From the NCBI RefSeq assembly GCF_013315695.1, contig NZ_CP054353.1: a DNA stretch of 64,000 bases. One strand, given 5' to 3'. This DNA comes from Escherichia coli (GTDB lineage Bacteria; Pseudomonadota; Gammaproteobacteria; Enterobacterales; Enterobacteriaceae). Position numbers: made by a program. Below are positions 14,501 to 17,500 of the stretch, one piece after another. Numbering within the stretch: the first letter of the stretch is position 1; every line of letters begins with the position of its first letter.

Positions 14501-17500
14501 GCGCATTACCTCAATAATTTCTTCATTGGTTTCACCCAGACCCACCATCAGACCAGACTTGGTCGGGATTTCCGGATGCGCTTCTTTAAAGCGTTCCAGC
14601 AGCTTCAGCGACCAGTTGTAATCTGCACCAGGCCGTACCTGACGGTAAATACGCGGTACGTTTTCCAGGTTATGGTTGAACACATCTGGTGGTGTGGCGG
14701 TCAGAATATCCAGAGCACGATCCATACGACCGCGGAAATCCGGCACCAGAGTTTCAATTTTGATTTGCGGGCTTTTTTCCCGAATGGCAGTAATGCAATC
14801 CGCAAAGTGTTGGGCACCGCCATCGCGCAGGTCATCACGGTCAACGGAGGTGATAACCACATAACGCAGCGCCATATCGGCAATGGTCTGCGCCAGTTTC
14901 ACTGGTTCATTGGCATCCGGAGCTACCGGGCGACCGTGGGCAACGTCACAGAACGGACAACGGCGGGTACAAATAGCGCCGAGGATCATAAACGTTGCTG
15001 TGCCGTGGTTGAAGCATTCCGCCAGGTTAGGGCAGGAGGCTTCCTCGCAGACAGAATGCAGGCCATTTTTGCGCATTGCGGCTTTGATGCCCTGGATACG
15101 TGTAGAGTCCGCTGGAAGCTTGATTTTCATCCATTCCGGCTTGCGCAGCAGGGCTTCGCGCTCTGTTGCCACGTTTTTAACCGGGATAAGGGCCATCTTA
15201 TCGGCATCGCGGTATTTAACACCGCGTTCCATCACAATGGGTTTACTCATAGCGTGCGTGTTCCAGTTGCGAATTACGAAGGAAAGCGTTTCAATTCAAT
15301 AGATTGTTGTAATTATCAACTATTTTTGAATTAACGACTGGCAGTATATCATTGAAACGGACCTGAAAGCAGCCAAAGCGGTCGCGAAAATGTAAAATTG
15401 TTGTTGGATTGTGCCATTTTTTCGTTCTTCGCTGTGATCTGGCTGTAACAATACTTTTTCAAAATGCATTCCGGATAACATCTATTACCCCGTGCAGGAT
15501 GGGATCACGCAGGCTGAATTTGTTGTAGTGGATAGAGAAATCTATTTGCTCCTCATTTAAGGACGGAAAAGGCAGTTTTTCCAGCGGCCAGCAACGGCTA
15601 AACAGGTTATAAAAACGGCTGGGAATAATCGCTAACATGTCACTGTTGGCAACCAGTGCAGCGATTGTCAAAATGTTGTAGCTGGTGAAACTGATTTGCC
15701 GGTCCGGAAACATCTCTTGAACTCTCTGCCGCAGACCGCTGAAATTTTGCCCTTCCGGTAACAGGAGTATATGCGCAGCGTTGTCGATAGTCTCTCTGTC
15801 ATCTTCTAAAGAGAGTAGCGGATTTCCCTCGCGGCAAATTAACACCATATTGTCGGTGAACAGAACATGATGTTGCACCGTACGATTGGTGCAAAACATG
15901 TTATCGATGATGAGATCGGTTTGAAACTGACTGAGTTGGTTTTCCGCGTCGCTGATGGGTGGGTTGCGCAGTAAAAGCTGCGGATAGTGAGATTTAATCG
16001 CCCGATAGATGACAGGAAGGACTAGGGCTCCGACCGAGGGGGTGGTCGCAATAGTTATCGTTCGTTGCTTATCATAGCTTCCTTCGATATCCAGCGCGCC
16101 AAGAATGGACTCAAGGCCCTGACTGATATACTCATGTAGATGCATCGCAAATGCGGTAGGAGTGACACCCTGGCCTTTGCGAATAAACAATGGGTCAGGG
16201 AATATAACGCGCAGTTTCTGAATAGACTGACTGATTGCCGAGGGTGTCAGATTAAGCACTTTCGCTGCATTAACGATCCCTTTATGTACATATACAGCTT
16301 CAAAAATAGTCAGAAGGTTAAGATCAATATTTCGTAAGGTTGTAAATATTTGTGGTTTACCTTCTGACGACTTTCTGCTTAAACAGGTTTCAATTTGATT
16401 ATTACTATCCACGCACTTACTCCAATTTTATTCATGGAAAAATAATATTAAAAAAAATTACAATAATCTTATGTCTAATTGGAACGGAACGCTTTTGCTC
16501 ACCATAATCAACTATTTCAATAAGTTAATCAATGGGGTGAGTTACGGAGCAAGGCGTAGCATCGCATTTCTGCAAGTGGGTGATGCTGCCAACTTACTGA
16601 TTTAGTGTATGATGGTGTTTTTGAGGTGCTCCAGTGGCTTCTGTTTCTATCAGCTGTCCCTCCTGTTCAGCTACTGACGGGGTGGTGCGTAACGGCAAAA
16701 GCACCGCCGGACATCAGCGCTATCTCTGCTCTCACTGCCGTAAAACATGGCAACTGCAGTTCACTTACACCGCTTCTCAACCCGGTACGCACCAGAAAAT
16801 CATTGATATGGCCATGAATGGCGTTGGATGCCGGGCAACAGCCCGCATTATGGGCGTTGGCCTCAACACGATTTTACGTCACTTAAAAAACTCAGGCCGC
16901 AGTCGGTAACCTCGCGCATACAGCCGGGCAGTGACGTCATCGTCTGCGCGGAAATGGACGAACAGTGGGGCTATGTCGGGGCTAAATCGCGCCAGCGCTG
17001 GCTGTTTTACGCGTATGACAGGCTCCGGAAGACGGTTGTTGCGCACGTATTCGGTGAACGCACTATGGCGACGCTGGGGCGTCTTATGAGCCTGCTGTCA
17101 CCCTTTGACGTGGTGATATGGATGACGGATGGCTGGCCGCTGTATGAATCCCGCCTGAAGGGAAAGCTGCACGTAATCAGCAAGCGATATACGCAGCGAA
17201 TTGAGCGGCATAACCTGAATCTGAGGCAGCACCTGGCACGGCTGGGACGGAAGTCGCTGTCGTTCTCAAAATCGGTGGAGCTGCATGACAAAGTCATCGG
17301 GCATTATCTGAACATAAAACACTATCAATAAGTTGGAGTCATTACCCTGCAAGTGATAAAGAAAATAAACAAACGCGAAGGAGATGTAAAGCATTAGCAG
17401 GTATTATGAGTAATGACCCAGTGTAAATTGGGCCATTGATGTATGCAATTAAGCGGTAATATATTCGAAGTCAGGATTGTTTAGTAGCGCTAAAATATTT

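Follow-up and report, generated by a model that had tools for sequence, protein, structure and literature searches.

In the E. coli genome analysed here, the spacer between lipB and ybeF carries a complete IS1, which raises the questions how the element arrived there and what its position means for the expression of ybeF. The window, i.e., the whole stretch of 64,000 nucleotides that was analysed, contains ybeF on the minus strand (15459..16412) as an intact gene for a 317-aa LysR-type regulator, identified by ORF scan and by the Pfam domains HTH_1 and LysR_substrate. The protein shows the domain architecture of LysR regulators (PF00126 at residues 31-89, PF03466 at residues 116-316), its product is named 'YbeF family transcriptional regulator' in RefSeq, and the protein WP_000378058.1 is the same in strain AF14, in which the site is empty. 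The upstream neighbour lipB (17449..18090, minus strand) is transcribed towards the end of IS1 that bears its right terminal inverted repeat (IRR).

Identity of the element and history of the insertion

Elements of the IS1 family have a length of about 768 bp and imperfect terminal inverted repeats of about 23 bp starting with GGT. Their insA and insB' frames overlap, and a -1 frameshift at an A6C motif leads to the fusion protein InsAB'. IS1 transposition duplicates 8-9 bp of the target. The element in the window is a complete IS1 of the IS1A type (16579..17346, plus strand) of 768 bp, of which 767 are identical to the MG1655 IS1A, the single mismatch being located at position 444 (G versus T). 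In RefSeq it is labelled 'IS1-like element IS1A family transposase, programmed frameshift'. The left terminal inverted repeat (IRL), GGTGATGCTGCCAACTTACTGAT (16579..16601, plus strand), forms the end towards ybeF, and the IRR, ATCAATAAGTTGGAGTCATTACC (17324..17346, plus strand), the end towards lipB and the ybeF promoter; in a repeat search of the window both arms were found to be 79% complementary over 24 nt. The ORF scan returned insA (16634..16909, plus strand; 91 aa), with the Pfam domains Zn_ribbon_InsA and HTH_Tnp_IS1, and the insB reading frame (16828..17331, plus strand), which encodes the catalytic part of InsAB' with the domain DDE_Tnp_IS1. The A6C slippery site AAAAAAC lies at 16884..16890 on the plus strand, within TTAAAAAAC at 16883-16891, and translation of the fused frame after a -1 shift at this site results in a 232-aa InsAB' free of internal stops, with matches to PF03811 (E = 8e-21), PF12759 (E = 1.7e-28) and PF03400 (E = 3.5e-78, full-length, 1-131/131).

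In length, repeats, frames, domains, 8-9-bp duplication and nucleotide identity to IS1A the element agrees with the IS1 family. It is a standard IS1A-type copy with all sequence features intact and is predicted to be transposition-competent. A 768-bp copy identical to it is found at a different site in strain SBF22, and the transposase protein WP_103215986.1 recurs at numerous further sites in other strains. The preliminary description of this locus had recognised a full 768-bp IS1 with both repeats, insA, insB and the A6C motif, flanked by perfect 9-bp direct repeats, and the sequence bears this out in every part: the left (16570..16578) and the right (17347..17355) copy of the target-site duplication CTGCAAGTG are exact and adjoin IS1 without a gap; at two positions fixed by the junctions, such a 9/9 match would arise by chance with a probability of ~4e-6. 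A second IS1 was not found within the 64-kb window, so the element does not form one end of a composite element.

The ancestral state of the site was reconstructed as the flanks joined by one CTGCAAGTG, giving an empty site of 609 bp, which has an uninterrupted match (609/609) in AF14 and in NZ_OZ546911. In K-12 MG1655, which the preliminary description had taken to lack IS1 at this position, the lipB-ybeF spacer is indeed empty, with 258 bp, one CTGCAAGTG and no IS. The empty-site comparison that had been proposed to verify the insertion was thus carried out, and AF14, NZ_OZ546911 and K-12 all have one ancestral copy of CTGCAAGTG between collinear flanks; the 9-mers are the doubling of a single copy and not two unrelated matches. 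The spacer has a G+C content of 34% compared with 51% for the window. The distances given before, 166 bp from IS1 to the ybeF start and about 100 bp to the lipB stop, were measured as 166 bp from the IS1 end to the ybeF GTG (16412) and 102 bp to the lipB stop (17449).

The distribution was searched in 5,426 complete genomes of the E. coli genome collection. The exact insertion, as a one-piece match at 100%, was found in only two of them, MSB1_4I and AF3. The window is identical to MSB1_4I over 33,386 of 33,386 bases, and 2 SNPs in 33 kb set AF3 apart; AF3 is a blood isolate from the UK and MSB1_4I originates from Australia, and they were sequenced independently. AF14, the closest-matching empty-site genome examined, differs by 18 SNPs and 1 indel in 36.9 kb. 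As only MSB1_4I and AF3 carry the insertion, while K-12 and AF14 have a single CTGCAAGTG, the insertion is a simple, evolutionarily recent transposition. The same had been supposed at the outset, and the single ancestral 9-mer, the collinear flanks, the 767/768 identity and the occurrence in 2 of 5,426 genomes all support it. Misassembly, e.g., an IS1 collapsed or misplaced in the contig, can occur in a genome with at least 40 IS1-matching pieces such as this one. However, the same junctions and the same duplication are present in two independently sequenced complete genomes, MSB1_4I and AF3, and a perfect duplication of 9 bp that occur only once in relatives marks a real transposition, which leaves an assembly artefact with a negligible probability.

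Position of IS1 relative to the ybeF promoter

In both promoter scans, which were run before the data on transcription start sites (TSS) were seen, the top sigma-70-like site on the ybeF strand was TTTACA/TATTTT. This promoter (17354..17390, minus strand) consists of the -35 hexamer TTTACA (17390..17385), a 17-nt spacer, the -10 hexamer TATTTT (17367..17362) and the +1 nucleotide A at 17354. In K-12, one single TSS was reported for ybeF by Kim et al., located 164 nt upstream of the gene, with 5 reads in one growth condition and an upstream sequence that ends in ...TTTACATCTCCTTCGCGTTTGTATATTTTCTTTATCA (PMC3415461 Table S1). The corresponding 51-mer maps to 17404..17354 of the window with 2 mismatches. 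By genomic SELEX with the RpoD holoenzyme, a ybeF promoter was likewise predicted in the lipB-ybeF spacer with the same -35 box, as TTTACA-15-TATATT, and the spacer was flagged as H-NS bound in K-12 (PMC3946193). Within the promoter spacer the window differs from K-12 by one base, GTATATTTT to GTTTATTTT; this SNP abolishes the TATATT hexamer chosen by Shimada et al., while TATTTT is kept.

With the promoter position taken from these published K-12 experiments, the data support that IS1 landed on the start of the ybeF transcript and that the promoter was moved by 777 bp. The equivalent of the published +1 (17354) falls inside the right-hand CTGCAAGTG, and IS1 sits at +9 of the transcript. The native 5' leader of ybeF (16413..16577, minus strand), which has 165 nt here and 164 in K-12, is split from the promoter by IS1, and the leader length increases from 165 to 942 nt, the addition being antisense IS1. 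The staggered cut would accordingly have fallen on the 9 bp that span -1 to +8 relative to the ybeF start of transcription, and a cut at this place would leave the sigma-70 promoter (TTTACA-17-TATTTT) on the lipB side, with leader and gene 777 bp further off. A possible separation of ybeF and its native promoter by IS1 had been suggested before, and it is supported by the K-12 TSS together with the RpoD SELEX promoter. The opposite case, a transcription start inside the 157 bp retained upstream of the gene, was looked at as well, and the published TSS was found to be located inside the target duplication instead.

Consequences for ybeF expression

In the classical view, IS1 exerts polarity in either orientation by Rho-dependent termination. 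Transcripts from the ybeF promoter, or from lipB read-through, would have to pass through 768 nt of antisense IS1 that are not translated, and Rho-dependent polarity across this segment would lower the expression of ybeF. A reduced ybeF expression is therefore the most likely outcome, as judged from the promoter displacement and the classical polarity of IS1. Intrinsic termination was considered as a further contribution; a weak candidate terminator on antisense IS1 (16719..16705) was rejected, as its fold is not more stable than those of shuffled sequence (z = -0.88). Since antisense IS1 has no convincing intrinsic terminator, the expected polarity would be the Rho-dependent one. No effect is expected on lipA, which retains a promoter of its own.

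The insertion might nevertheless be functionally silent, if ybeF is transcribed mainly from a promoter in the retained 166 bp, or if weak expression and silencing by H-NS already keep ybeF so low that a shift of the distal promoter has no measurable effect. Several weak sigma-70-like matches in the retained 166 bp, e.g., TTGATT-17-GATTAT and GTTCCA-17-TGTAAT, could sustain some expression, the ybeF ORF is intact and identical to that of AF14, the published K-12 TSS comprises only 5 reads (PMC3415461 Table S1), the lipB-ybeF spacer is marked as H-NS bound (PMC3946193), and in ST131 the transcript level of ugd was unchanged by an upstream IS1 (PMC8764528). However, the TSS of Kim et al. (PMC3415461) and the RpoD SELEX promoter (PMC3946193) both lie beyond IS1 as seen from ybeF, the proximal matches score 2-3 log2 units below the distal site, which is chance level for AT-rich sequence, and the consensus scan returned no minus-strand site in the retained segment. 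A silent insertion is therefore regarded as rather unlikely, although it is an alternative of some weight.

An activation of ybeF would be the reverse effect. The inverted repeat of IS1 contains an outward -35 that can create hybrid promoters (PMC8764528, PMC9330008), and a -35-like TTGGCA (16592..16587, minus strand) is indeed present in the junction sequence within the IRL, 8 nt from the tip that faces ybeF. A second route to activation would be the disruption by IS1 of an H-NS silencing complex over the spacer, as it occurs at bgl with IS1 or IS5. The binding of H-NS to the spacer in K-12 (PMC3946193) would fit this route. At the IRL junction, however, the hexamers 16-18 nt past TTGGCA are GAAATG, AAATGC and AATGCG, which agree with TATAAT in no more than 1-2 of 6 positions and do not have the final T, so that none of them is a usable -10, and a junction-spanning promoter was not among the top PWM matches at the IRL end. 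By sequence, an IS-generated hybrid promoter is accordingly not predicted at the end towards ybeF. Furthermore, relief from H-NS would not put the promoter back beside ybeF. Activation by either route is thus very improbable. The suggestion in the preliminary description that IS1 may drive read-through into ybeF is not supported either, because insAB points away from ybeF and the flank offers no -10 for the outward -35 of the IRL. The locus is with good probability explained by one IS1A-type transposition, with its 8-9-bp target duplication, into the AT-rich spacer of the MSB1_4I/AF3 lineage, which split ybeF from its promoter and would have lowered its expression.

Recurrence around ybeF and comparison with known systems

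IS1 often lands in AT-rich, H-NS-bound spacers, and recurrence at this locus can be compared with that in similar spacers. The region considered spans 618 bp and includes only the first 143 bp of ybeF. Within it IS1 occurs in 47 of 5,426 genomes (raw genome counts, kinship ignored) at no fewer than 12 positions and in both orientations. With one exception, these positions are on the gene side of the ybeF +1; at four of them the ORF is disrupted, and at two the insertion overlaps the start codon. The nearest other site, CATTTCTG, is located 5 bp away (ET670, ET745 and the EC6622 right junction), and this micro-cluster was used by three different IS1 isoforms. An apparent orientation bias was discarded: the genome search joined same-strand pieces only, so that each query was blind to the opposite IS1 orientation, and while initially 11 genomes were found, all same-oriented, a query with reversed IS1 gave 36 more in the opposite orientation. 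The region was likewise rejected as an exceptional hot spot. By rough arithmetic its count is ~8x the expectation for a uniform genome, but two AT-matched control spacers in the window, searched with the same query design, had IS1 in 47 genomes in the case of citC-dpiB and in 23 in that of dcuC-pagP, in many distinct configurations each. A separate observation in the lipB-ybeF spacer is that 16510-16526 resembles IRR-proximal IS1 (82% over 17 nt, with an exact 10-mer). It was considered as an IS1 remnant and dismissed, since the match length is about that expected by chance and the match depends on a strain-specific SNP absent in K-12.

The recurrence of IS1 in the leader and the 5' coding part of ybeF could reflect selection to switch YbeF off, e.g., for FlhDC-dependent motility. 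The number of genomes and positions, the presence of both orientations and the location of nearly all insertions past +1, in the ORF or on the start codon, would be in line with this, as would the report that lrhA goes down and the FlhDC iModulon goes up upon deletion of ybeF (PMC9068703). Against it, the density near ybeF is not exceptional when compared with the 47 and 23 genomes of the control spacers, and the clustering at the 5' end is in part a sampling effect, as the search was limited to the first 143 bp of the gene. Such selection is improbable, and it is highly doubtful that recurrent IS1 past the ybeF +1 marks a selected silencing of YbeF in natural E. coli, possibly with de-repression of FlhDC and motility. 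As AT-matched spacers reach 47 and 23 genomes, no selection is needed to explain the site; the AT-rich target preference would suffice, and the choice of the site may do without a special explanation.

Polymorphic IS1 insertions rank among the most frequent structural differences that E. coli genomes show. The insertion described here is a routine strain polymorphism that is already annotated in two RefSeq records, and its consequence is mostly one of strain bookkeeping; the new point is the position of IS1 relative to the published ybeF +1 and promoter. MSB1_4I and AF3, with the ybeF promoter split from the gene, form a natural near-isogenic set together with AF14; they may serve as a knock-down of a LysR regulator that comes for free, the only reported phenotype of YbeF being its effect on lrhA and the FlhDC regulon. 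The site also adds to the catalogue of AT-rich, H-NS-bound spacers around the cit-lip region that repeatedly take IS1.

The K-12 MG1655 IS1A (NC_000913.3 19796-20563) has the same 768 bp, inverted repeats, insA/insB layout and A6C site, and the window copy differs from it in chromosomal location and in the one base at position 444 only. In ST131, IS1 was found upstream of afaA, osmB and ugd, so that there, too, a gene that is itself intact has IS1 in its regulatory region, and the upstream IS1 raised, lowered or left unchanged the transcription depending on whether a hybrid promoter arose from the outward -35 of the inverted repeat and a -10 in the flank (PMC8764528). The nearest analogue of the ybeF insertion is osmB, for which the transcript was reduced (PMC8764528). 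At ybeF, unlike in the ST131 cases, IS1 is located downstream of +1 and not upstream of the promoter, and the sequence does not predict a hybrid promoter. The IS1 copies of other genomes in the ybeF region, in citC-dpiB, including the E. coli B/BL21 copy, and in dcuC-pagP belong to the same family and show 8-9-bp duplications; their spacers are likewise AT-rich and H-NS-bound, and both orientations and occasional adjacent deletions occur. Their positions differ from the one described here, the CTGCAAGTG site being used in MSB1_4I and AF3 only. A further comparison is the silent bgl operon, which is activated by IS1 or IS5 in its AT-rich, H-NS-bound regulatory region. At bgl the IS is inserted upstream of the promoter and silencing is relieved, whereas at ybeF IS1 is located between promoter and gene, which predicts a loss of expression and not a gain as at bgl.

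Identity, origin and age of the IS1 copy between lipB and ybeF

The 768-bp element at 16579-17346 carries the terminal inverted repeats of IS1 (16579-16601 and 17324-17346), insA (16634-16909), the insB frame (16828-17331) and the A6C slippery site AAAAAAC (16884-16890), at which a -1 shift yields an open 232-aa InsAB' frame with all three Pfam domains of IS1, i.e., the InsA zinc ribbon, the InsA HTH and DDE_Tnp_IS1 (E = 3.5e-78). It differs from the IS1A of K-12 MG1655 in 1 of 768 bases and is the only IS1 copy in the 64-kb window. On every defining feature tested it is an IS1 family member, specifically a copy of IS1A, as already annotated in RefSeq. 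Exact copies of the 9-mer CTGCAAGTG adjoin it at 16570-16578 and 17347-17355. Both neighbouring genes are on the minus strand: ybeF (15459-16412; 317 aa, LysR HTH and substrate-binding domain) starts 166 bp to the left of IS1, and lipB (17449-18090) ends 102 bp to its right. The preliminary description was thereby exactly borne out in length, inverted repeats, insA/insB, A6C motif, 9-bp repeats and gene distances. A spacer segment at 16510-16526 (AACTATTTCAATAAGTT) matches IS1 at 17318-17334, near the right inverted repeat (IRR), at 82% over 17 nt and exactly over TCAATAAGTT; as this match is at about chance level and needs a SNP absent from K-12, it was rejected as a remnant of an IS1 end and is probably a coincidence.

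The window is identical to the genome of E. coli MSB1_4I, from a rectal swab in Australia, in 33,386 of 33,386 bases. An empty-site query, composed of both flanks and one CTGCAAGTG, matched AF14 and NZ_OZ546911 in one unbroken piece (609/609 bases). At least 80% of the query was covered in one place in 5,377 of 5,426 complete genomes, a count that takes in IS1-bearing genomes as well, since the search joins flanks across gaps of IS1 size. The spacer of MG1655 is 258 bp long with a single CTGCAAGTG and no IS, in agreement with the preliminary description. These empty sites with one CTGCAAGTG show that the 9-mers flanking IS1 are a true target duplication. Among the 5,426 genomes, the exact insertion occurs in two only, MSB1_4I and AF3, a blood culture isolate from the UK with 2 SNPs from the window in 33 kb; its presence in both also led us to reject an assembly artefact. 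AF14 is 18 SNPs and a single indel away from the window over 36.9 kb, so the insertion predates the split of MSB1_4I and AF3 and postdates their divergence from AF14-like strains. The proposed simple and recent insertion is thus upheld, and the genome comparison indicates that it is evolutionarily recent and inherited. Apart from this, at least 40 IS1-matching pieces each were found in the IS1-bearing genomes NZ_LR898874.1 and NZ_OZ547117.1, compared with a per-genome median of 11 places, which suggests a lineage rich in IS1 in which fresh insertions of this kind are expected.

The ybeF promoter and the predicted effect on expression

Two promoter scans, run ahead of the literature, agreed on a single clear sigma-70-like site in the spacer on the ybeF strand, with TTTACA at 17390..17385, a 17-nt spacer and TATTTT at 17367..17362 (minus strand). 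For K-12, a single ybeF TSS is listed, on the minus strand with 5 reads, a 164-nt 5'UTR and the "-50 to TSS" sequence ATATCTGCTAATGCTTTACATCTCCTTCGCGTTTGTATATTTTCTTTATCA (Kim et al., 2012; PMC3415461 Table S1). An RpoD-holoenzyme binding site was found in the K-12 lipB-ybeF spacer, which is also marked with an H-NS site, and the ybeF promoter was predicted as TTTACA-15-TATATT (Shimada et al., 2014; PMC3946193). Both published data sets and the scans point to the same promoter. With two mismatches, the published 51-mer aligns to the minus strand at 17404..17354. The ybeF +1 thus falls on 17354, base two of the right duplication copy. The duplicated 9 bp hence correspond to -1 to +8 of the transcription unit, and the transcript runs through CTTGCAG before entering IS1 at its IRR. 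The insertion leaves the promoter intact but adds 777 bp between it and the gene, and the distance from TSS to start codon has grown from 165 nt (164 in K-12, which has one T less in a T-run) to 942 nt, the insert being antisense IS1. The suggested separation of ybeF from its native promoter is therefore supported, and in the available data the TSS does not lie within the 157 bp retained upstream of the gene. In the promoter spacer, 17368-17371 (minus strand) reads GTTTATTTT in the window strain and GTATATTTT in K-12; the TATATT -10 of Shimada et al. is lost, while TATTTT is kept 17 nt from the -35 and 7 nt from +1, so native promoter strength may differ from K-12 even without IS1.

Activation of ybeF by the insertion could come from the outward -35 in the IS1 inverted repeat, which can form hybrid promoters with a properly spaced -10 (PMC8764528, PMC9330008). 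At the left inverted repeat, facing ybeF, only GAAATG, AAATGC and AATGCG lie 16-18 nt past TTGGCA, and no junction-spanning site scored; as insAB is directed away from ybeF, the promoter of IS1 itself is unable to drive the gene. Activation is thus unlikely, and the proposed read-through from IS1 fails. Any transcript that starts at the native promoter or arrives by read-through from lipB consequently has to traverse 768 nt of untranslated IS1. Polarity via Rho is a classical property of IS1 in either orientation; our literature search on IS1 Rho polarity returned no usable statement, and no convincing intrinsic terminator was found on the antisense IS1 strand. From this arrangement, we infer that IS1 probably reduces ybeF expression. 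That the insertion is silent for ybeF appears doubtful; it would fit the weak matches to promoters within the AT-rich 166 bp that still adjoin ybeF. YbeF belongs to the LysR regulators and is uncharacterised; deleting it lowered lrhA and raised the FlhDC iModulon (PMC9068703). As lipA has its own TSS in K-12 (PMC3415461 Table S1), it should be unaffected by IS1.

IS1 insertions in the ybeF region and in control spacers

Within the 618-bp ybeF-lipB region (35% G+C), IS1 is found in 47 genomes, 11 in the orientation of the window and 36 in the opposite one; an orientation bias in the first search was rejected as an artefact of how pieces were joined. Representatives from 19 IS1-bearing genomes, placed on an empty site (L011, 18901-21100), revealed at least 12 distinct target positions in the ybeF leader and 5' ORF with 8-9-bp duplications. 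Two overlap the start codon (SBF22; EC21Z-151 group) and four lie inside the ORF, with five configurations since one position was used by two IS1 types. The 9-mer CAATAATCT was targeted in both orientations (ECCTRSRTH03 and strain 167), AACGATCCC by two isoforms (AW1.7 and F138), and CATTTCTG, 5 bp from the window site, by three isoforms (ET670, ET745, right junction of EC6622) with 99.7%, 95.2% and 92.7% identity to the window IS1. ET670 has a copy in ybeF and a second in the leader, and LST200A, EC6622, NT1F34 and NT1N28 show IS1-adjacent deletions of about 120-195 bp without duplication.

As these many insertions resembled a hot spot, two neighbouring spacers of matched composition, both empty of IS1 in the window, were queried with the same design. 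The citC-dpiB spacer (6889-7266; 35% G+C) carries IS1 in 47 genomes (1 + 46), many of them E. coli B derivatives, in at least seven configurations, with one copy fixed in the B/BL21 lineage. The dcuC-pagP spacer (11001-11588; 32% G+C), also H-NS marked, carries it in 23 (10 + 13) in many configurations. The ybeF region is thus typical of AT-rich spacers, and its insertions can be explained without invoking selection on ybeF. The pattern fits a regional bias of IS1 insertion towards AT-rich DNA, as Zerbib et al. reportedly described in 1985.

PSS-15, LAU-OXA and MINF_8D show apparent IS1-bounded rearrangements or deletions linking citC/dpiB to dcuC/pagP. In pagP itself (11589-12150), an extra A at 11730 gives CAT ATA TGA for CAT TAT GAT, a frameshift with premature stop present in MSB1_4I and AF3, annotated in both as a pseudogene by RefSeq; AF14 pagP is intact. 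As two independent assemblies share it, the frameshift is probably genuine and the clone deprived of the lipid A palmitoyltransferase.

Comparison with known IS1 insertions

Overall, the observation was confirmed and its interpretation largely supported, with only read-through failing. The insertion is of slight use in that MSB1_4I/AF3 against AF14 constitute a natural near-isogenic test of splitting ybeF from its promoter. As an insertion in a regulatory region, it resembles the IS1 insertions upstream of osmB, afaA and ugd in ST131 (PMC8764528), and is nothing new in kind; unlike those, which lie upstream of the promoter, it sits just downstream of the ybeF +1.
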